This document shows, piece after piece, positions 29,655-47,266 of a stretch of 64,000 bases of DNA. Under the pieces are notes generated by a model. It did no database searches. It saw only the letters and a list, made by a program, of their open reading frames with translations, and had not been told where the DNA came from. The DNA comes from a virus (Duplodnaviria > Heunggongvirae > Uroviricota > Caudoviricetes), in IMG/VR virus record IMGVR_UViG_3300025575_000276. One strand, written 5' to 3'. A program made the position numbers and the translations under genes. Position 1 is the stretch's first letter, and every line of letters starts with the position of its first letter.

Positions 29655-30111
29655 CTTTTATTTATGTGTGTATTAATTTACGCAGATTCAAAACCTTGGG
29701 ATGGACGGATTTTCCTGGCAGACAGAGCGATTATGTTAATCATGGAGTATCCATCACCAATATCGCCTAAGCTAACTACTAATGCTTACAGAGACTTGCA
29801 CATTGACTATGGTTAAGTCCGCTAATAAACAGAACTACTAACTTTAAAACTTAAAATTTATGTTTGGATTTTTCGAATTTGATTACTCCGACTTGATTTG
29901 TTCATTAGTTGCAGAAGATTATGTAGTAGCCCATATAAGAGACCTAACCCTTAAGCAAGGAATACCCGGACCAAAAAGAGTCTTAGTCCTTGAATACGGA
30001 TAGAGTTTCAGCACTACTAAATTGACGTAAACTGGACAAAAAATAAAAACATTAGCAATTAACAATAAATATTCAAAACTCTTTAGTGTAATAGCTAAAG
30101 AGTTTTCAATC

Positions 30112-30184
30112 GGGGGATTAACGCTCAATTGGCAGAGCAACGGTGACTAAACCGTAGATATTGGTTCGATCCCAGTATCCCCCA
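30112..30184 (+). tRNA. tRNA-like gene, non-canonical. It has a 6-nt anticodon loop and a 4-nt acceptor-to-D connector
   Basis: The acceptor pairs GGGGGAT with ATCCCCC perfectly. The D-arm is GCTC-AATTGGCA-GAGC. The anticodon arm is ACGGT-GACTAA-ACCGT. The T-arm is ATTGG-TTCGATC-CCAGT. Confidence 0.45.
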
Positions 30185-30209
30185 CAAATAATTTAAACCA
30201 TAATTTTTT

Positions 30210-31481
30210 ATGAAAATCAAAGATGTAACATTGGTTAACTTCGGCCAGTATGGTAACATTTCAGTCAGTTTTGACGATAATGTGACGTACCTAGTTGGTC
30301 CGAATGGATCAGCTAAAACCACCATGGGCCTGACTGGTATCTGGGCCACAATAGAAGGCATTGCTCAAAAAGGACAAAATGTATTGACCGGAGAAAGGTT
30401 CAGGTTTATCGGTGACAAAGCTGCAACATCAACTTCCACAATTACCATCTACGATGAAAAGATTGGAGAGATAAAAGCAGAAAGGAAGTTCACTAAAACT
30501 GGATCATCATTATCATTCGAAGGCCCGGCAGGAGTTACTTTATCTCAAGAGTGGTTGTCCTCCCTGTTTAACATCCTACTTATTGCTCCAAAACGGTTCA
30601 TATCTCTTACAGGACGTGAGCAAGCATTAGCTTTGGGTATTGATGTCGCTTCCTTTGAAAAGGAGCTTGCAGAGCTTAAAACTGACTATACTTTGATCAA
30701 TCGGGAACTCACTAATATGGGTAAGATTGATGTGGTAGAGGAAGCTGTAACGGTTGATATCGCTGACCTTATTGCTGAAAAGAAATTAGCAACTCAGCAC
30801 AATACCGAGGAACAGAAAAAGGAAGATGCTATTACAACAGCCGACACAACCATCACTAGCACTGAAAAATCAATAAGTGATGCTGAAGTGACTATTAAGA
30901 ACCTTCAGGAGCAAATAGTAATCTTTAAAAAGAGTTTGGAAGCTTGGCAAGAGTACAGAGGAAAGCTTGAAGATCCTGCCTATAAGGATATCGATGCTAT
31001 TGATACCAAAATGGAAACAGCCTCAACAACAAACATTGCTGCTGCAAATTACGATGCTTATCTTGTTAAAGTTAAGAACAAAGAGGATAAGACAAAGGAA
31101 CTTGCTGACAACAAGGAGAAACAAGCTGATGTCGTTGCCCGGCAACTGGCCTACATTAAAGGTAAACAACTCCCCTTCCCTGATTTAACTATCGGTGATG
31201 ATGGTGGACTATTGTTACAAGGCCGGCCACTTAAGGAACCATACTTCAGTACTGGCGAACTCACTCAGATCATTCCAATCCTTATGAGTTCCACAAATCC
31301 TGAGTTGAAATATGTCTTTATTCAGGATTTCAATTTGTTGGATGAAGTTCGTCAACAACAAGTAGAGGAAGCACTTACTTCTAAAGGGTTCCAACTCGTA
31401 ATTGAGTATGTGGGAACAAAAAAAGTACCAGGTAAGAATTGTATTTTAATGGAAGAAATCAATAACCAAAACCAAGTATAA
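30210..31481 (+). CDS. SMC/Rad50/RecF-like ABC ATPase with a central coiled coil
   Basis: The N-terminal 'YLVGPNGSAKTT' is the Walker A motif. The C-terminal 'FSTGELTQ' is signature-like and 'YVFIQDFNLLDE' is the Walker B motif. The roughly 200 aa between them are rich in Glu, Lys and Ala. Confidence 0.7.
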   Translation: MKIKDVTLVNFGQYGNISVSFDDNVTYLVGPNGSAKTTMGLTGIWATIEGIAQKGQNVLTGERFRFIGDKAATSTSTITIYDEKIGEIKAERKFTKTGSSLSFEGPAGVTLSQEWLSSLFNILLIAPKRFISLTGREQALALGIDVASFEKELAELKTDYTLINRELTNMGKIDVVEEAVTVDIADLIAEKKLATQHNTEEQKKEDAITTADTTITSTEKSISDAEVTIKNLQEQIVIFKKSLEAWQEYRGKLEDPAYKDIDAIDTKMETASTTNIAAANYDAYLVKVKNKEDKTKELADNKEKQADVVARQLAYIKGKQLPFPDLTIGDDGGLLLQGRPLKEPYFSTGELTQIIPILMSSTNPELKYVFIQDFNLLDEVRQQQVEEALTSKGFQLVIEYVGTKKVPGKNCILMEEINNQNQV

Positions 31482-31484
31482 ACA

Positions 31485-32522
31485 ATGAAAACAACACTTA
31501 AAGTGATTGCGTGGATTGCTGTCTACGTCACATTATTAGGGTTCATTTGCCCTGATCTAATCAGTGCTCCAAGCACACCCGAAGTACTCTTAGGAGTCGC
31601 CCTAATCATAGGGATAATTCTTTCATTCATTTATCATTTCAAAACCCTTTACAAAATTATGAAACCAATCATCAGTAAATTTCTCTTAGGAGTAGTGTTA
31701 TTAATGGCTTTAATAGCCTTCACAAGTTGTTCAACAGTTCCTCCCGGATACGGTGGAGTAGTAATCAAAAAGTATGGCTCTGAGAAGGGTGTTCAAAAAG
31801 TTGCCCTTGGAGTTGGAAGTTACTGGTTAGGACCTAATGAGAGCATGGAAAAGTACCCTACACATCAGGTAAACTACACTTTTACACAAGATAAGTCAGA
31901 AGGATCAAATGCCAACGAAGAGTTTACTTTCCAAACCAATGAAGGTATGGAATGTGCTACAGATTTAGGAATCGCAATGCATTATGATTTTGCACTTATT
32001 CCGCAGATGTATCAGAAATACTTAAAAGGTGAAGATGAAATACGAGGTACAGTTGTAAGAAATAGCATAAGAAACTACTTGAATAAAGTTGCCGGGGGAA
32101 TGCCTGTTGAATCCGTATATGGAAAAGGTAAATCTACTTTAATTGACAGCGTTCAACTATTAGTTAAGAAGGAGTTAGATGCTACAGGAATTATTATAGA
32201 GAAGATATATTTGATCGGATCTATTCGTATTCCAGAATCAGTTAAACAATCACTTGACTCAAAAGTAAAGGCTACACAAGATGCTCAGAAGATCGAGAAT
32301 GATGTAAGAGCAACTAAAGCAAAAGCAGAGCAAGCCATTGCAAAAGCAGAAGGTGATGCCAAGGCTTTACTTACCATAGCAGAGGCCCAAGCTAAAGCAA
32401 ATAAATTAATATCACAATCAATAACTCCAGTACTTGTTAACTACAAGGCCATTGAAAAGTGGAAAGGAGAACTACCTACATATTCTGGAGGTGGTGCAAT
32501 ACCATTTATCAATATTAAGTAA
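31485..32522 (+). CDS. SPFH/band-7 family membrane protein, similar to HflK/C or prohibitin
   Basis: It has N-terminal TM helices, an SPFH core, and a C-terminal Ala/Glu-rich coiled coil 'AKAEQAIAKAEGDAKALLTIAEAQAKANKLI'. Confidence 0.7.
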   Translation: MKTTLKVIAWIAVYVTLLGFICPDLISAPSTPEVLLGVALIIGIILSFIYHFKTLYKIMKPIISKFLLGVVLLMALIAFTSCSTVPPGYGGVVIKKYGSEKGVQKVALGVGSYWLGPNESMEKYPTHQVNYTFTQDKSEGSNANEEFTFQTNEGMECATDLGIAMHYDFALIPQMYQKYLKGEDEIRGTVVRNSIRNYLNKVAGGMPVESVYGKGKSTLIDSVQLLVKKELDATGIIIEKIYLIGSIRIPESVKQSLDSKVKATQDAQKIENDVRATKAKAEQAIAKAEGDAKALLTIAEAQAKANKLISQSITPVLVNYKAIEKWKGELPTYSGGGAIPFINIK

Positions 32523-32529
32523 TAAAAAA

Positions 32530-32592
32530 TGGGGAGGAACATAAGTCGATAAGACTAGGTGGAGAGGGATCGAATCTCTCTCCTCCCCCAAA
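32530..32592. terminator. large GC-rich hairpin after the SPFH gene
   Basis: The hairpin pairs GGGGAGGA...GGAGAGGG-atcgaa-TCTCTCTCC with TCCTCCCC. Confidence 0.5.
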
Positions 32593-32619: not shown

Positions 32620-32847
32620 ATGAAGAATTGCGAAATAATTGATAAAACTGGAGTAATCTTCAGTGGTTACGATACCCATACCACAAGACGTATCTGGGAT
32701 TTAGCCACAATGTCCAAAGAGCAGTTCATGGAAGACCATGAAGACGATGTTGAAGATTACGAAGCCGAACTCCAAGAGTACTGGCCTAATACCCCAAAAT
32801 GGAATGGGACCTTAAAATTTGTTCAAGTACTTAGTACAGCTTACTAA
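32620..32847 (+). CDS. hypothetical acidic protein
   Basis: The ORF is 75 aa. Confidence 0.45.
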   Translation: MKNCEIIDKTGVIFSGYDTHTTRRIWDLATMSKEQFMEDHEDDVEDYEAELQEYWPNTPKWNGTLKFVQVLSTAY

Positions 32848-33203
32848 TGAGCCTACCTGACGAAGCTGAAGTATGGTGGCCTGATCACAGAGTTAAGCAC
32901 ATCTTCTCCCACTTACCCAATGTAAAATGTGGACATTTCCATGTTCACAATGCAACTTTCATCGATGATGTTGATTGTTACGCATGTCTGAAACTAGTTG
33001 ATGAAGGTTACAAACACAACCTTTCCACAAGAGCAGAGCGAGAATCTCAGCGATTAAAATCTATTGGAGGGCAGAACGGATATTGTTCATGTGGGGCACC
33101 ATTTATAATAAAACGGAACCATACAACAAAAGAGCAATTTCTTGGATGTAATAACTATCCAAAATGTAAGAATACCAAAAGTATAATACGTAAACCAGTA
33201 TGA
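32847..33203 (+). CDS. zinc-finger protein with a topoisomerase-type C4 zinc ribbon
   Basis: It carries 'CYACLK' and 'FLGCNNYPKCKNTKS'. Confidence 0.5.
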   Translation: MSLPDEAEVWWPDHRVKHIFSHLPNVKCGHFHVHNATFIDDVDCYACLKLVDEGYKHNLSTRAERESQRLKSIGGQNGYCSCGAPFIIKRNHTTKEQFLGCNNYPKCKNTKSIIRKPV

Positions 33204-34225
33204 AACGAAAACTATTTTTCTCAAATGTTGCCCATGCTCCGGGCATTGACTGCGGTTACAAACACTATTTAGATGCAAGTAAACTTGAAAAAGTTACTTG
33301 TCCTAGGTGTATGCGACTCATTAAGGAAGGAGGAAAATCTACGTTTAAAGATGGCCGTAGCCTACCCTCAGATCCGAATTTGAATGTTATTTGCGACCAG
33401 TGTGGAAAACCTATGGTTAAGCAGTCAATTGGCCAAGGTGGGGAATCAACCTATATTTGTTCTGACTACCCCAAGTGTCAGAATATAAAAAAGATTACTT
33501 TTGCAAAGTTAATTAAAGTAAGTAAAGAAACACCTAATTCCCTAATTACAAAGAATATGAGTACTATTACAGGACTAACATCTGTTATTTCAGACATCCT
33601 AAGATCGGCAGTAAACAAGCGTATATCTGTTAAAGATCAACCAATTACAAAGTTATTGAAAGATGCTGAAGTGTCCTTACATTTCTCCTCTACTTTACTT
33701 GATGTTCTGGCTGAAAAGGGACTTATTTTCAGAGAAGGTGAGAGAGCTGGTATTTATTACACAGTTTTGACTGATGTGATCCCAGATCCGCAAGTACTTG
33801 CAACTGAGTGCTACAACAGGTACAAAGAGGAGAATAAGAAATCTCGGGAACAGAAGAAACTTGACCTCGAAGATGGGAAGGTCACTACCAGAGCATACAG
33901 GAAGAAATCCATCGAAAAAGGAGAAATCCAGAATGGTACAAGTACGATTATTCGTAGAAGAACTCCGTCAATTGGCGACATCATGTATATGATGAACGAC
34001 AATAGAGTTTGCGAAGTTCGTGTATACGGTGTTCAGGAAAATGAGACTACTGGAGCTATTGAGTGTCATGTTGAACACTTTAACCATTTAGAGGAAATTG
34101 AGGAAGATATACCGTACACTGGCTGGAAAGCTACAAATACTCCTCACAAATCTCTGTTTGACTCTCCAGAAATCTTAGTACAAAGACTACTAGCAACTGT
34201 TTTAAAGCACATTAAAAGAAGATAA
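33200..34225 (+). CDS. multi-zinc-ribbon protein with a C-terminal domain of unknown function
   Basis: It carries 'CPRCMR', 'CDQCGK' and 'YICSDYPKCQNIKK'. The ORF is 341 aa. Confidence 0.5.
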   Translation: MKRKLFFSNVAHAPGIDCGYKHYLDASKLEKVTCPRCMRLIKEGGKSTFKDGRSLPSDPNLNVICDQCGKPMVKQSIGQGGESTYICSDYPKCQNIKKITFAKLIKVSKETPNSLITKNMSTITGLTSVISDILRSAVNKRISVKDQPITKLLKDAEVSLHFSSTLLDVLAEKGLIFREGERAGIYYTVLTDVIPDPQVLATECYNRYKEENKKSREQKKLDLEDGKVTTRAYRKKSIEKGEIQNGTSTIIRRRTPSIGDIMYMMNDNRVCEVRVYGVQENETTGAIECHVEHFNHLEEIEEDIPYTGWKATNTPHKSLFDSPEILVQRLLATVLKHIKRR

Positions 34226-34228
34226 TTT

Positions 34229-35407
34229 ATGAAAAGTGTAGTTTCTACAGAAAGACTTCCAATCAAATTTTGGTTGGAAGATATTGAACCCGGTGCATTA
34301 TCTCAAGCAAGGAACTTGGCTAACTTGCCATTTCTATTTAAGCATGTAGCAATCATGCCGGACAGCCATCAAGGATATGGAATGCCTATTGGTGGGGTAA
34401 TCGCCACTACAGGTGTTGTAATTCCAAATGCCGTTGGCGTGGATATCGGGTGTGGCATGTGTGCGGTCAAAACTTCCCTCAATGTAGAGGATTTTGATAG
34501 AGATGAGCTAAAGGCTATCCTATCATTAATAAGGAAATGTGTTCCAGTGGGGTTTGAGCATCACAAGGAACGTCAAGATTGGGAACTAATGCCTAATGTT
34601 GTTGGATTTGAACAGTCTCCTTCAATTGTGTTTAATCAACAGGCTTCAGCAATGAAGCAACTTGGCACACTCGGAGGTGGAAATCACTTTATCGAAATTC
34701 AAAAAGATAATGATGGCTTTATCTGGATTATGATCCATTCCGGTTCACGAAATCTCGGTAAAAAAGTTGCAGATTACTATAACAGTATAGCCAAAAAACT
34801 CAATGGATTATGGTACTCTCAGGTTGACAAGGTGAAAGACCTTGCTTTTCTTCCTATAGATACCTTAGAAGCAAAAAGCTACATGATGGAGATGCAGTAT
34901 TGTGTTGATTTTGCTCTGGCTAACAGAAAGCTGATGATGGAAAGGATTCTCGAAAGTTTCTATGATGTTATAGATACAAGTGTTATGCATGATCCAATGA
35001 TTAATATCGCCCACAACTATGCTCAGTGGGAAAACCACTTTGGTCACAATGTAATAGTCCACCGGAAAGGTGCTACATCGGCCAAAGTAGGTGAGATCGG
35101 AATCATTCCCGGTTCTATGGGTACCAAATCCTACATTGTTGAAGGGCTAGGAAATCCTGAATCCTTTATGTCCTGCTCACATGGAGCTGGCCGTAAAATG
35201 GGAAGAGGTCAGGCGACTCGGGAACTCAATCTGGAGAAAGAAATCTGGGATCTGGAGGAACAAGGTATCATTCATGGTATGCGTTCTGTTAAAGATCTTG
35301 ATGAAGCTCCCGGTGCTTACAAGTCAATTGAAAAGGTCATGGCTAATCAAAGTGATCTAGTTAAGATATTAGTAGAACTAACTCCGCTTGCGGTTATTAA
35401 AGGTTAA
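34229..35407 (+). CDS. rtcB: RtcB-family RNA ligase
   Basis: The RtcB motifs present are 'VGVDIGCGM', 'GGGNHFIE', 'HSGSRNLG' and 'HNYA'. The Cys/His metal-site residues are in place. Confidence 0.8.
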   Translation: MKSVVSTERLPIKFWLEDIEPGALSQARNLANLPFLFKHVAIMPDSHQGYGMPIGGVIATTGVVIPNAVGVDIGCGMCAVKTSLNVEDFDRDELKAILSLIRKCVPVGFEHHKERQDWELMPNVVGFEQSPSIVFNQQASAMKQLGTLGGGNHFIEIQKDNDGFIWIMIHSGSRNLGKKVADYYNSIAKKLNGLWYSQVDKVKDLAFLPIDTLEAKSYMMEMQYCVDFALANRKLMMERILESFYDVIDTSVMHDPMINIAHNYAQWENHFGHNVIVHRKGATSAKVGEIGIIPGSMGTKSYIVEGLGNPESFMSCSHGAGRKMGRGQATRELNLEKEIWDLEEQGIIHGMRSVKDLDEAPGAYKSIEKVMANQSDLVKILVELTPLAVIKG

Positions 35408-39373: not shown

Positions 39374-41152
39374 ATGCAATACACAGTTAATGAAACCGTA
39401 AAACTCATTTATGTTGATTTATTTGCCGGTGCCGGAGGGACAAGTACTGGTGTTGAAAGGGCTAGACATAATGGTAAAAAGTGTGCTATTGTAGCTGCTT
39501 GTGTTAATCACGATGCAAATGCTATTATCAGCCACAAATATAACCATCCGTTCACACTACATTTTACTGAAGATATCCGAACATTGGATCTTACTTCTCT
39601 GATTGTCCACATAGCTTACATGAGATTGGCCTATCCAAATGCAAAACTTGTGCTATGGGCCAGTCTCGAATGCACCAACTTTTCAAAGGCTAAAGGTGGT
39701 TTACCCAGAGATGGAGATAGTCGTACTCTTGCAGAGCATTTGTTCAGGTATATTGAGGCACTAGATCCAGACTTAGTTCAGATCGAAAATGTTGAAGAGT
39801 TTATGAGTTGGGGACCACTTGACGATGCGGGGAAACCTATTTCAAAAGAGGCCGGCATTGACTATACTCGTTGGAGAGACGAGGTTATAGCGTATGGTTA
39901 TAACTTTGACTATCATATATTAAACTCTGCTGATTTTGGAGCTAGGACTAGTCGTAGAAGGTACTTTGGCATCTTTGCTAAAGAAGGTATCCCTATAGCG
40001 TTTCCCTCCCCTACGCACTCTAAAAACCCTAAAAATGGACTGAAAAAGTGGAAACCTGTTCGTGAGGTTTTAGATCTCGAAGATGGCGGTGCCTCCATAT
40101 TTGACAGGAAGAAATCACTTGTCGATAAGACTCTTTTAAGAGTACACGCAGGATTAGTGAAGTTCGTGGCCGGTGGCAAAGAGCACTTCCTGGTAAAGTA
40201 TAGCTCCATGGGTCAAAATGGAAAATACAACGCACCGGGAGTGGATGAACCTTGTCCAGTTATTTCAACACAAAACAGATTAGGTCTGGCTCAGATAAAC
40301 TACTTAACAAAATACTATTCAGGAAATCCTGAATCTATGGTAGTTAGTCTCGAAAGACCTTCTCCTAAAGTAAGAACAAAGGATGGGCTTTCCCTTGTAG
40401 ACGTAAAGTTCTTTGCTGGTTACTATGGAACTGGAGATAATGTAACTTCGGTTGACTCTCCGGCCCCTACTATCACTACAAAGGATCGACTTGCTCTTAT
40501 AAAGGCACAATTTATAGATCAACAGTTTGGAAATTCAAAGCCATCTGGTGTGGACGTTCCTCTTGGAGCTGTTACCGTAAATCCAAAGTACAGTCTTGTG
40601 AATTGTGAGCAATTCTTTGCGAACTCTTACTCTGGCGGTGGTCAGATATCGGATATTGAAGAACCTTGTTCTACTTTAACAGTGGTTCCTAAACAGAACC
40701 TTGTTTCCTGTATTCAACAATCACAATACCTGTTTAATCCTCAGTACACCAGTAAAGGAGGAGACATCAATGAACCATGTTTCACATTGATCGCAAGGAT
40801 GGATAAGACTCCTCCAAGTATTGTTACTTGTAGTTCCGATCTCTCAGACAACGTACCCTCATTCATTAAGATACAGGGGAATACAGCAGTCTATGAAATC
40901 TATACTACAGATACTCCTGCAACCGTAGCCATAAAAGAATTTATGGCATTATACGGACTTCTTGATATTAAAATGAGAATGTTGAACATACCCGAACTAA
41001 AGCAGATCATGGGATTTCCTAAGGACTACATACTGGTTGGCACACAAGCCGAACAGAAGAAGTTCATAGGTAATGCTGTAGAGACTACTATGGCCATGGT
41101 GTTATGTGAAGCATTAGTTGAAGAATTAACTGAACTTAAACTTGTTGCATAA
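39374..41152 (+). CDS. DNA (cytosine-5) methyltransferase with a very large variable (target-recognition) region
   Basis: Motif I is 'VDLFAGAGG'. Motif IV is 'SLECTNFS', where Glu-Cys replaces the usual Pro-Cys. Motif VI is 'IENVEEF'. Motif VIII is 'TSRRRYFGIF'. Motif X is 'FIGNAVETT'. Confidence 0.8.
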   Translation: MQYTVNETVKLIYVDLFAGAGGTSTGVERARHNGKKCAIVAACVNHDANAIISHKYNHPFTLHFTEDIRTLDLTSLIVHIAYMRLAYPNAKLVLWASLECTNFSKAKGGLPRDGDSRTLAEHLFRYIEALDPDLVQIENVEEFMSWGPLDDAGKPISKEAGIDYTRWRDEVIAYGYNFDYHILNSADFGARTSRRRYFGIFAKEGIPIAFPSPTHSKNPKNGLKKWKPVREVLDLEDGGASIFDRKKSLVDKTLLRVHAGLVKFVAGGKEHFLVKYSSMGQNGKYNAPGVDEPCPVISTQNRLGLAQINYLTKYYSGNPESMVVSLERPSPKVRTKDGLSLVDVKFFAGYYGTGDNVTSVDSPAPTITTKDRLALIKAQFIDQQFGNSKPSGVDVPLGAVTVNPKYSLVNCEQFFANSYSGGGQISDIEEPCSTLTVVPKQNLVSCIQQSQYLFNPQYTSKGGDINEPCFTLIARMDKTPPSIVTCSSDLSDNVPSFIKIQGNTAVYEIYTTDTPATVAIKEFMALYGLLDIKMRMLNIPELKQIMGFPKDYILVGTQAEQKKFIGNAVETTMAMVLCEALVEELTELKLVA

Positions 41153-45249: not shown

Positions 45250-46218
45250 ATGATCATTAGGGAGTTGTCGTACTACGATAAATTTATCTTTTCCACAAGC
45301 GGTGGTAAAGACAGTCTCGCAATGATATTGTATCTTCTTGAGAATGGTGCCGATCCCAGTAAAATGGAACTTTGGCACCAATCAATTGATGGAAGGTACG
45401 ATACTCATAAAAGTTTCTTCGACTGGCCGTCAACCGATGGCTACGTGGCAAAATTGGCTGAACATTTAAACATTCCCCTATCCTATCAGTGGCGTGAGTA
45501 CGGTTTCTACGGTGAACTTCACCGTGAAAATCAGCGAACTAATGATGTTAGGTTTGAAAGATTTGGTGTTTTAGGACACCTACCCTCTTCTCCTTATGGT
45601 CAGGAGTCCACTAGACTTCGTTGGCCGGCCAAGACTGCATCTTTAACTACCAGGTGGTGTTCTGCATACCTAAAGATTGATGTGGCCTCCAGAGCACTTA
45701 ATAACATGCCAGACTTGAAGGGTAAGCGCATCTTGTTCATAACAGGTGAAAGGCGAGAAGAGAGTACTGCAAGATCGAAGTACAATGAATCAGAACTTCA
45801 TAGGACCAACTCTAAATCAAGGTTGGTACATCATTGGAGAGCGATCATTGATCAGAACGAACAATGGGTGTGGAATATCATACAAAGACATGGCATCCTG
45901 CCACATCCAGTGTACTACCTTGGGTTTCCCCGGTTGAGTTGTAGGAGTTGCATCTTCTTTTCAAAGGATCACTGGGCCACTTTAAAAGAGGTAAGTCCAG
46001 AGGTTGTCACTATGCTTTCAGGAGTTGAGGAGAACTTAAACTTTAAACTTGACAACAAGTTTACAATAAACGAGTTAACCCAAATGGGTAGAAGTCTACT
46101 TATTCCGGAAAACCACCAGTATGTTAAAATGGCTGTGTCAGAATTTTCTGGTAGTGTTACTACAAATAATTGGATCATGCCAACTGGTGCCTTCGGACAT
46201 GGTGGTGGAAGTCTGTAA
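45250..46218 (+). CDS. PAPS-reductase-family PP-loop ATP pyrophosphatase (CysD/CysH/DndC-like)
   Basis: The N-terminal 'FSTSGGKDSLAMIL' is a PP-loop SGGxDS motif in the PAPS_reduct style. The ORF is 322 aa. Confidence 0.6.
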   Translation: MIIRELSYYDKFIFSTSGGKDSLAMILYLLENGADPSKMELWHQSIDGRYDTHKSFFDWPSTDGYVAKLAEHLNIPLSYQWREYGFYGELHRENQRTNDVRFERFGVLGHLPSSPYGQESTRLRWPAKTASLTTRWCSAYLKIDVASRALNNMPDLKGKRILFITGERREESTARSKYNESELHRTNSKSRLVHHWRAIIDQNEQWVWNIIQRHGILPHPVYYLGFPRLSCRSCIFFSKDHWATLKEVSPEVVTMLSGVEENLNFKLDNKFTINELTQMGRSLLIPENHQYVKMAVSEFSGSVTTNNWIMPTGAFGHGGGSL

Positions 46219-46234
46219 TTTATAAATTAAAACT

Positions 46235-47266
46235 ATGATACAGTACCTTGAAATTTTGCAGGAAGTGCTTGACAAAGGCACTTGGAAGAGACCTGCTCGG
46301 GATAACATGCCCCGGACAATAAGTAGGTTTGGGATTACCAAACGATTTGATCTCAGTAAAGGGTTCCCTCTGGTCACTACTAAGAAAATGTTCTTCAATG
46401 GTGCTTTACATGAACTGTTGTGGTTCCTTAGAGGCGACACTAACATCCACTACCTTGTGAAAAACGGTGTAAACATCTGGAATGAAGACGGCTACAAATG
46501 GTACAAAAAGAGACTGAAGAATGTAGGTGCTGAAGATATGACTCTTGAGTTCCCAGATTGGGTAAAAGCAGTTAAAGGAATTGAACAACCTTGTGGTGAT
46601 TTAGGAAAAATCTACTCCCATCAGTGGAGAAGTTTTGGATCAAAGGACGGCAGAGGGTGGGTTGGTGGAGTTGATCAGATTACTAGAGTTGTCGAAGGGA
46701 TCAAAGCAAATCCTGAGTCTCGCTACAATGTCGTAAGTGCTTGGAACCCGGCTGAACTAAATGAAGGTGCTCTACCTCCATGTCACATGCTGTTCATGTT
46801 CAATTGTAGGGAAATATTCACAGAACAACGGTATGACATGGCTATGAAGAGTGAGGAACTAAGAAATGAGTTGAAAAGTACTGGCCTAACAAGTGAGTGG
46901 CTAACTAAAAAAGGCATTCCAACTCACTATCTTGATTGTGATATGACTCAGCGTTCTTGTGATACTCCCTTGGGAGTTCCCTTCAACATTGCCTCCTATG
47001 CACTCCTTACAATGATTATCGCAAAGTTGACAAATACTGTACCAGGTGAATTCATTTGGTCCGGGAAGGATGTCCACATCTACGAGAATCAAATCGATGC
47101 AGTATACAATCAACTCGAAAGAACTCCCCTACCCTTACCAACAATGGAAATTACAAGTGATTGGGATTCCATTGAAGACATAAAATTCGAAGATTTCAAA
47201 CTCAGAGATTACAAGTCACACGACTCAATCAAATATCCACTATCAACAGGTTTAATATTAAGGTAA
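46235..47266 (+). CDS. thyA: thymidylate synthase (ThyA-type) carrying an insertion of about 40 aa. The alternative is a dUMP hydroxymethylase
   Basis: The ThyA motifs present are 'LPPCHMLFMFN' and 'QRSCDTPLGVPFNIASYALL' with Asn retained. A roughly 40-aa insert lies between them. Confidence 0.75.
   Translation: MIQYLEILQEVLDKGTWKRPARDNMPRTISRFGITKRFDLSKGFPLVTTKKMFFNGALHELLWFLRGDTNIHYLVKNGVNIWNEDGYKWYKKRLKNVGAEDMTLEFPDWVKAVKGIEQPCGDLGKIYSHQWRSFGSKDGRGWVGGVDQITRVVEGIKANPESRYNVVSAWNPAELNEGALPPCHMLFMFNCREIFTEQRYDMAMKSEELRNELKSTGLTSEWLTKKGIPTHYLDCDMTQRSCDTPLGVPFNIASYALLTMIIAKLTNTVPGEFIWSGKDVHIYENQIDAVYNQLERTPLPLPTMEITSDWDSIEDIKFEDFKLRDYKSHDSIKYPLSTGLILR

Follow-up and report, generated by a model that had tools for sequence, protein, structure and literature searches.

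RtcB RNA ligases are an established part of phage gene content. Subcluster K1 mycobacteriophages and Erwinia, Caulobacter and other jumbo phages carry a stand-alone RtcB in a large genome together with tRNA-type genes, and the role proposed for these enzymes is to reseal tRNA breaks inflicted by the host. The idea that a phage RtcB counters host tRNA cleavage was put forward for mycobacteriophages in 2011 (PMC3203893) and later generalised to jumbo phages (PMC7824862); as a hypothesis, repair of RNA damaged by host RNases is the usual account of what phage RtcBs do. Phage T4 repairs tRNA cut by the host suicide nuclease PrrC with two other enzymes, Pnkp and Rnl1. Enzymatic tRNA splicing in archaea and animals relies on RtcB for ligation, and bacteria have the ligase family in rtcBA and rsr-yrlBA-rtcBA operons, which are RtcR- or WYL-regulated and feature Ro60/TROVE with Y RNA. 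The E. coli enzyme and other bacterial RtcBs are not known to need archease for ligation. Here, we analyzed a 64,000-nt stretch of DNA (the window) from a ~170-kb Caudoviricetes phage (IMG/VR record IMGVR_UViG_3300025575_000276), whose host is probably a member of the Bacteroidota. Within what we take to be the early genes of this phage, the window encodes RtcB directly downstream of two zinc-ribbon proteins, Zn118 and Zn341. An earlier note on this DNA had read the arrangement as a tRNA-repair or counter-defence module, in which the zinc-ribbon proteins might be the specificity or activator factors of the ligase. One half of this proposal, a real and apparently catalytically competent RtcB, stands; the other half, its coupling to the zinc ribbons, is not supported. 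The best explanation overall, to which we assign a probability of about 0.66, is an intact stand-alone RtcB lying in a mosaic early region beside an unrelated, DNA-side zinc family with which it forms no functional unit. The genes concerned are the following.

34229..35407, + strand: RtcB, 392 aa (Pfam PF01139, phrog_1075, intact catalytic residues)
32847..33203, + strand: Zn118, full-length member of the zinc-module family (Zn_ribbon_Top1, family profile and alignments)
33200..34225, + strand: Zn341, zinc module plus a C-terminal part of ~230 aa (module paralogy, comparison with the related contig L239)
26497..26919, + strand: Zn140, divergent third zinc-module paralog, 6 kb upstream (Pfam, family hidden Markov model (HMM))
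32620..32847, + strand: orf75, small open reading frame (ORF) without homologs in the mosaic slot upstream of Zn118

The ORFs of RtcB and the three zinc proteins were all found at these coordinates, and the gene calls of the source contig (ENA ERZ27294293 k141_289202, 169,860 bp) concur. No near match at the DNA level was found between the window and any sequenced phage. The block is co-oriented and tightly packed, with a 1-nt overlap between orf75 and Zn118, a 4-nt overlap between Zn118 and Zn341 and a 3-nt spacer between Zn341 and RtcB, which confirms that the ligase gene directly follows the two zinc-ribbon genes. Promoter and terminator scans around the block gave counts at the shuffle level and were uninformative.

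RtcB matches Pfam PF01139 with 395.2 bits (cut-off 27; E 6e-118) across profile positions 1-426 of 426, and phrog_1075 with an E-value of 9e-122; because its NCBIfam scores lie below the equivalog cut-offs, we regard it as a generic family member. The three signatures from which it had originally been recognised, DIGCG (residues 72-76), GGGNHFIE (149-156) and HSGSRNLG (170-177), are present. Its metal ligands D72, C75, H153, H170 and H262 align with D95, C98, H203, H234 and H329 of the P. horikoshii enzyme, the nucleophile H318 (in SCSHGAGR) corresponds to the guanylylated histidine H404, and the GTP-site residues N152, E156 and K391 are conserved. An enzyme inactivated by missing metal-site residues, as the earlier note had allowed for, is thus not what the window encodes, and RtcB looks like a complete, catalytically competent ligase with an intact active site. 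Regarding its origin, 702 records of the phage collection encode RtcB, the best of which are 42-46% identical to the window protein. The three closest RtcBs on viral contigs reach 58-63%, which is below the cellular Bacteroidota enzymes; the closest relatives come from cellular Bacteroidales/Bacteroidota genomes with 67-69% identity, and the enzyme of Bacteroides xylanisolvens is 61% identical. Since the window RtcB is closer to cellular Bacteroidota enzymes than to those of viral contigs, its capture from the host lineage is suggested. With 42-46% identity to cultured-phage enzymes as against 69% to a cellular Bacteroidota one, and with 'tRNAs' that are mostly non-decoding, the locus differs from the phage systems described above. 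Neighbouring ORFs carry Bacteroidota-style lipoprotein signals, which fits the Bacteroidota kinship of RtcB.

Among ~68 window ORFs scanned, a set that leaves out some small ORFs, none encodes archease, RtcA, RtcR, a kinase-phosphatase, an ATP-grasp ligase or TROVE, nor was a WYL regulator found near RtcB; this is consistent with the earlier observation that an archease, polynucleotide kinase (PNK) or Hen1 partner is not visible. The proposed logic, a phage mending tRNA that a host suicide nuclease has cut, is that of T4. The locus departs from T4, whose heal-and-seal repair uses a PNK and an ATP-grasp ligase, in that RtcB seals a 3'-phosphate or cyclic phosphate directly to a 5'-OH and renders healing enzymes unnecessary. 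It likewise departs from the rtc and Rsr-Y RNA operons, of which RtcA, RtcR, TROVE and WYL are missing from the scanned ORFs and for which Rfam returned no Y RNA or YrlA in the window. Among the fetched related genomic RtcB loci, one (L174) has RtcR and another (L160) has TROVE together with WYL. PADLOC gave no defence-system match for RtcB or Zn118. Judging from the biochemistry of the family, RtcB would use GTP and Mn2+ to join an RNA 3'-phosphate or 2',3'-cyclic phosphate to a 5'-OH. We infer an enzyme that acts on its own to seal breaks between 2',3'-cyclic-phosphate and 5'-OH ends, which during infection may reseal tRNA or other RNA cut by metal-independent RNases of the host or of competitors, and which would do so alone, needing neither an end-healing kinase nor a phosphatase. 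A phage RtcB acting as RNA-repair ligase would be nothing new, as phage RtcBs are widespread and the counter-defence idea is old.

The zinc proteins belong to a family of their own. Scored against Pfam Zn_ribbon_Top1 (PF01396, gathering score 32 bits), Zn118 reaches 34.8, Zn341 27.8 and Zn140 26.4 bits. The three are pairwise 30-38% identical over ~110 residues with invariant Cys and His positions, and a family HMM recovers Zn118 (E 1.5e-43), Zn341 (E 1.2e-24) and Zn140 (E 8.8e-27) and nothing else in the window, which bears out their description as paralogs with a Top1-type ribbon. In the shared module of ~110 residues, a first zinc site (C-x-H...C-x2-C) is followed by a basic helix and then by a C4 ribbon of the Top1 type, the ligands of which (C80, C82, C101 and C107 in Zn118 numbering) are invariant in 26 sequences including all three paralogs. 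A search of 1.84 billion representative proteins with a profile built from the three paralogs returned 1675 matches, most of them covering the ribbon only and many having several ribbon repeats. Within these matches, single-domain proteins 110-170 aa long form a separate set that covers the whole module. Its members begin with MSLPDTAEYWWDVK, described in Zn118 as the motif MSLPDxAEYWW, and continue with the motifs F-x-H-I-P-G-x-D-C-G-H-x-H, C-x2-C and G-x-C-S-C-G...R-x-N...F-L-G-C-x-N-Y-P-K-C-K-x-T-K-S-I. Zn118 is a typical full-length member, and Zn140 and Zn341 are divergent copies without this N-terminal motif. Cultured phages are virtually devoid of the family, and the module as a whole is not spanned by any Pfam or PHROG model. 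An AlphaFold 2 (AF2) model of Zn118, with a predicted local distance difference test (pLDDT) value of 80, shows two small zinc-binding beta units connected by helices, for which structure searches returned only generic zinc ribbons, the best, weak match being the C-terminal ribbons of E. coli Topo I. Compared with these topoisomerase I ribbons (PF01396), the family consists of stand-alone proteins of ~120 aa that lack the topoisomerase catalytic domain and have at their N-terminus a zinc unit of a distinct kind, along with the conserved motif MSLPDTAEYWW. JGI labels family members 'ssDNA-binding Zn-ribbon topoisomerase 1', and PADLOC marginally matches Zn140 to LmuB (E 7e-3). Directly after Zn140, at 26928-27104, lies a zinc-ribbon-type mini-protein with two C-x2-C pairs (YYIDCPHCDY...VECPVCETKF), which is a 58-aa gene on the source contig.

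Linkage between the ligase and the zinc family was assessed in both directions. On the family side, we collected 17 loci with full-length members and +/-10 kb flanks, 14 of them non-redundant. By tblastn, RtcB was found in none of the 17 (0/14 non-redundant) and in none of 128 loci of other Top1-type ribbons, the two sets amounting to ~1.78 Mb. On the ligase side, the family HMM was negative in all 86 other RtcB neighbourhoods, which comprised the three viral contigs at 58-63% identity, three cultured phages and the 80 closest cellular loci (816 kb). The three closest viral loci have a gene for a radical-SAM enzyme or an isochorismatase-like protein upstream of RtcB, and in the three cultured phages RtcB is surrounded by hypothetical proteins only. 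Elsewhere, RtcB and zinc genes adjoin only in a sibling contig, L240, the DNA of which is 95% identical, so that shared descent accounts for the adjacency. The co-occurrence in related phages that the earlier note had suggested looking for is therefore absent both ways outside this sibling. RtcB beside Zn118 and Zn341 is most likely a chance neighbourhood, and the dedicated zinc-ribbon cofactors, the would-be special feature of this locus, are not supported by comparative genomics.

The company that the zinc family does keep is that of DNA metabolism. In three of the family loci, the zinc gene directly follows that of a ~660-aa SbcC/SMC-like ATPase, with stop and start codons abutting or overlapping, and RecT and a metallo-beta-lactamase-fold protein are encoded one or two genes downstream. 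The arrangement of one of these loci recurs in an integrase-bearing prophage of Epilithonimonas xixisoli (Bacteroidota), beside methylase, DnaB and VRR-NUC genes, and other family members reside among genes for DnaB, AAA_24, NUDIX, GIY-YIG, DEDD exonuclease and methylase proteins. The zinc family is thus tied to DNA replication and recombination modules, and its delineation as a populous family of small two-zinc phage proteins, with at least 161 clusters at 90% identity, is a by-product of this analysis. The set of ATPase, zinc gene, RecT and metallo-beta-lactamase may represent an unrecognised accessory of the phage recombination module. An ATPase gene is also found in the window.

30210..31481, + strand: SMC/SbcC-like ABC-type ATPase (AAA_23), three genes upstream of Zn118 (domain matches)

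It shares the Pfam domains AAA_23/AAA_29 with the ATPases of the three loci and the prophage; close sequence similarity is absent, and PADLOC yields generic P-loop matches only. Because of the DNA-metabolism neighbours and the resemblance to Topo I ribbons, the most economical guess is that the zinc family binds single-stranded DNA.

The architecture of Zn341 points in the same direction. Its zinc module occupies residues 1-107, and the C-terminal ~230 aa contain a region weakly resembling a winged helix-turn-helix (wHTH), with weak matches to HTH_45 and to the C-terminal wHTH region of Csa3 (PADLOC Csa3 marginal, E 1.5e-3). Zn341 is a near-orphan, forming one cluster at 95% identity; its AF2 model is unusable (mean pLDDT 33), and the C-terminal part has no sequence match in the PDB. 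Its history can be read from L239, a relative whose flanking genes are 68-82% identical to those of the window. There, the order is ATPase, SPFH protein, a 64-aa Hc1-like ORF, a Zn118 homolog and then a gene with its own start (L239 3660-4055) that matches only residues 116-241 of Zn341, with 47% identity, directly after the Zn118 homolog. Since the C-terminal part is a separate gene in L239, Zn341 is a fusion of a duplicated zinc module with a neighbouring gene. The fusion is lineage-specific and, in functional terms, ties the zinc module to this weakly wHTH-like neighbour and not to RtcB. Together, the weakly wHTH-like domain and the genomic company of the family point to DNA rather than RNA as the likely target.

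The genes preceding Zn341 also vary between close relatives. In L240, Zn341 and RtcB are 95-98% identical to the window proteins (RtcB 98%), and the Zn118 slot (L240 688-1143) holds a family member that is only 43% identical to Zn118. Similarity to the Zn118 gene survives there over 35 nt at the start and ~80 nt at the end, and the slot looks like the product of a cassette exchange within the zinc family. The slot of orf75, which has no family matches in Pfam, PHROG or PADLOC, is likewise variable: L239 has the 64-aa Hc1-like ORF nearby, and in L240 an unrelated ORF of 247 aa takes the place of orf75. The block upstream of Zn341 is thus mosaic among close relatives and, as the Zn118 slot is exchanged freely, Zn118 is not what one would expect of a co-adapted partner of RtcB. 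In the picture that we propose, Zn118 and Zn341 would not be partners of RtcB; they would belong to a widespread two-zinc phage protein family of replication and recombination modules, which has probably expanded to three copies in this phage, with one copy, Zn341, fused to the neighbouring wHTH-like protein. Their place next to RtcB would reflect the dense mosaic packing of early genes and not a conserved functional unit.

Several points weigh against this picture. The tight, co-oriented packing of the block almost certainly entails co-transcription, and the overlapping or near-abutting genes are possibly translationally coupled; such packing is compatible with a functional link. The order of zinc-family gene, Zn341 and RtcB is kept in L240, the sole relative whose contig reaches RtcB, and a newly evolved, lineage-specific partnership may be compatible with the absence of linkage elsewhere. 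Zinc ribbons are able to bind either nucleic acid, RNA or DNA, and the RNA-repair role given to the window RtcB draws on family knowledge rather than on evidence from the window.

Of the competing explanations, the one that survives best, though we consider it improbable, places a membrane protein at the centre.

31485..32522, + strand: SPFH/Band-7 membrane protein, phrog_200 type (Pfam, PHROG)

This SPFH protein (Pfam Band_7 71.5 bits; phrog_200 E 1.7e-69) would be the real partner of RtcB, the two forming a recurrent two-gene unit, perhaps for membrane-localised RNA repair or stress sensing, between which orf75, Zn118 and Zn341 have been inserted. The closest cellular RtcBs lend the idea some substance: in 7 of the 80 cellular loci, an SPFH gene lies immediately upstream of RtcB (spacer 27-135 nt), and in two more it is nearby. 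These loci belong to Bacteroidota/Chlorobiota, and their SPFH proteins are of ~366 aa. The pairing, another by-product of this work, echoes the rtc locus of P. aeruginosa PA14, which embeds the SPFH gene PaFlo8 (PMC13086221). The window resembles the cellular pairs in having SPFH upstream of RtcB in the same orientation, its order running SPFH, tRNA-like element, the mosaic genes orf75, Zn118 and Zn341, and RtcB, and L239 keeps SPFH at the equivalent place. In contrast to the cellular pairs, the window SPFH lies 2.7 kb upstream of RtcB with three genes and an RNA element intervening, and it is of another subfamily. Since the cellular SPFH linked to RtcB is not significantly similar to it (BLASTP E 0.25, tblastn without a match), we rejected orthology and downgraded the relationship to a lead. 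Moreover, 453 phage records contain the phrog_200 type; of the best 60 listed, most are phages of Pseudomonas, Burkholderia and Stenotrophomonas with sizes of 37-80 kb. In none of six other RtcB loci from viral contigs or phages does it lie near the ligase gene, and chance alone would place it within 3 kb in a 170-kb genome at ~3-4%, which is not negligible. The spacers of the cellular SPFH-RtcB pairs contain only plain hairpins and no tRNA-like element.

A further explanation, which we rate below the previous one, turns to the tRNA-like RNAs of the phage, located as follows.

20331..20902, + strand: cluster of four tRNA-like genes (Rfam, ARAGORN, folds, strict scan), made up of the next four elements
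20331-20437, + strand: tRNA-like, 107 nt, with a 35-nt hairpin insert in the anticodon arm
20507-20587, + strand: tRNA-like, 81 nt, with an irregular GUAA-capped anticodon arm
20686-20761, + strand: tRNA-like, 76 nt, Pro-UGG-like, with an ordinary 7-nt anticodon loop and a weak D stem
20770-20902, + strand: tRNA-like, 134 nt, with about 60 extra nt
30112-30185, + strand: tRNA-like gene (Rfam RF00005), 74 nt, with a 6-nt anticodon loop (GACUAA) and good acceptor, D and T arms
32532-32588, + strand: mini tRNA-like element in the spacer between SPFH and orf75, 57 nt, with acceptor stem, T-arm and one short hairpin only, without anticodon arm (fold and strict module scan)
20937..21476, + strand: RNase H-like gene directly downstream of the cluster (phrog_531 E 1.2e-15; NCBIfam RNase HI weak)

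The RNase H gene reported before is thereby confirmed, and the claim that the phage has its own tRNA genes holds in part: Rfam RF00005 matches the window four times with 32-48 bits (threshold 29), while ARAGORN at default settings called no tRNA and the genes are mostly non-canonical. A strict scan for modules that combine a canonical T-loop, a 5-bp T-stem closed by a G-C pair and an acceptor stem of 7 bp detected five on the + strand, where random sequence would be expected to yield 0.03, and the Rfam match at 20331 raises the number to six. A canonical 5-bp anticodon stem with a 7-nt loop is present only in 20686-20761. Within the cluster, ARAGORN makes calls with introns or at lowered thresholds, and it calls the 74-nt element, which scores 44.7 bits with Rfam RF00005, at lowered thresholds only. 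The 57-nt element has an 8-bp acceptor-like stem and the T-loop AUCGAAU, and its fold (minimum free energy -27.3 kcal/mol; z -3.2 to -3.7) was equalled in stability by 0 of 200 shuffles. It sits just 5' of the orf75-Zn118-Zn341-RtcB block.

The two elements that the L239 contig covers are nearly invariant there. The 74-nt element is identical to L239 563-636 at 73 of 74 positions in surroundings of 68-83% identity, and the 57-nt element to L239 3176-3239 at 59 of 60, a hairpin insertion (net +4 nt) adding 2 bp with the fold kept. Such near-invariance next to flanking genes of 68-82% identity shows that purifying selection acts on both elements, which are therefore no pseudogenes in decay. That the lineage keeps anticodon-defective tRNA-like RNAs under strong selection is the sole point of this analysis that could lead somewhere new. 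These RNAs may serve to punctuate early transcripts for RNase P/Z, as decoys that mimic tRNA or as substrates of RtcB; only the latter two roles would connect them to RtcB and the zinc proteins. In a reading that we hold to be very unlikely, the conserved non-decoding RNAs would be physiological partners of RtcB and possibly of the zinc proteins. It takes two forms, each with a slim chance of being right: RtcB would ligate the exons once a protein has removed the 35-nt insert, in a protein-dependent splicing or maturation of phage tRNA, or it would recycle, by re-ligation, tRNA-mimic decoys that absorb host nucleases directed at tRNA. The number of elements, a normal anticodon loop in one of six, the near-invariance of two of them and the position of one directly 5' of the block are compatible with such a role, as is the family's function as archaeal and animal tRNA-splicing ligase.

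The first form invites comparison with archaeal and eukaryal tRNA splicing by EndA, bulge-helix-bulge (BHB) intron, RtcB and archease, with which the window has in common an RtcB and a tRNA-like gene with a 35-nt anticodon-arm insert. Excision of this insert from the 20331 element would leave a 7-nt loop with the anticodon CAU or CAC. In contrast to the known pathway, the insert is a simple 12-bp hairpin at the stem-loop junction, EndA and archease were not found in the window, and archaeal-type splicing was rejected because a BHB is missing: in eight registers and both orientations, none combined 4/4 central pairs with flanking helices. The insert-bearing gene furthermore has three acceptor-stem mismatches. 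As to tRNA-like substrates in general, processing by RNase P/Z would leave ends that RtcB does not join, and similar modules lacking an anticodon occur in two family-bearing contigs, L006 and L154, without RtcB within the fetched 20 kb. An identity with Y RNAs was rejected as well: the tRNA-like RNA near RtcB recalls YrlA of the rsr-yrlBA-rtcBA operons, but Rfam gave no Y RNA or YrlA match near RtcB even at E <= 10, TROVE was not found, and the elements end at the acceptor stem and not in a Ro-binding stem.

Nor do tRNA-like RNAs generally accompany the zinc family. The strict scan was positive only in L006, L154 and the present lineage, and a relaxed scan near zinc-family genes gave 20 hits against 12.5 expected and was dominated by noise, so that the association was rejected. 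The elements of L006 (1493-1552, 2825-2895, 6118-6192 and 10464-10569) and L154 (16168-16255) are tRNA-like RNAs with non-decoding anticodon arms, including a mini element of 60 nt, a 7-bp stem with a tetraloop cap and extended arms; in L006, one of them follows the zinc-family gene at a distance of 65 nt. A search pattern of D-arm and T-arm demanding an over-long spacer additionally found tRNA genes with anticodon-arm inserts of 21, 43 and 26 nt in the unrelated viral contigs L144 (9632-9705), L146 (2705-2801) and L147 (7017-7095), respectively. Just upstream of the 74-nt element, a 12-bp hairpin with A-tract/T-tract flanks (30075-30106) shows two compensatory pair changes in L239, from T-A to G-C and from T-A to C-G, and is probably a conserved terminator.

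That Zn118 and/or Zn341 serve RtcB as specificity or activator factors, substituting for archease or guiding the ligase to broken tRNA in a dedicated tRNA-repair counter-defence module, deserves scant credence: the operon-like packing with overlapping stop and start codons, the order preserved in L240, the missing archease and the conserved tRNA-like element just 5' of the block fit this idea, yet the two-way absence of linkage and the recurring DNA recombination and replication neighbours speak against it, a bacterial RtcB such as that of E. coli is not known to need archease and so need leave no activator gap to fill, and a Zn118 slot swapped down to 43% identity beside a 98% identical RtcB is unexpected for a co-adapted partner.

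Apart from the stand-alone RtcB and the zinc family, which we continue to regard as unconnected neighbours, the window holds further genes of note. At 63236-63718, it encodes a macrodomain protein resembling the ADP-ribosyl glycohydrolase of the DarG antitoxin (phrog_335 E 2e-46; PADLOC DarG E 8e-9), a candidate for countering an ADP-ribosylating host defence. The early region also contains genes for a PAPS-reductase-like protein (45250-46218), a long thymidylate-synthase homolog of 343 aa (46235-47266) and a C5-cytosine methylase of 592 aa (39374-41152), which together may indicate base modification of the phage DNA.

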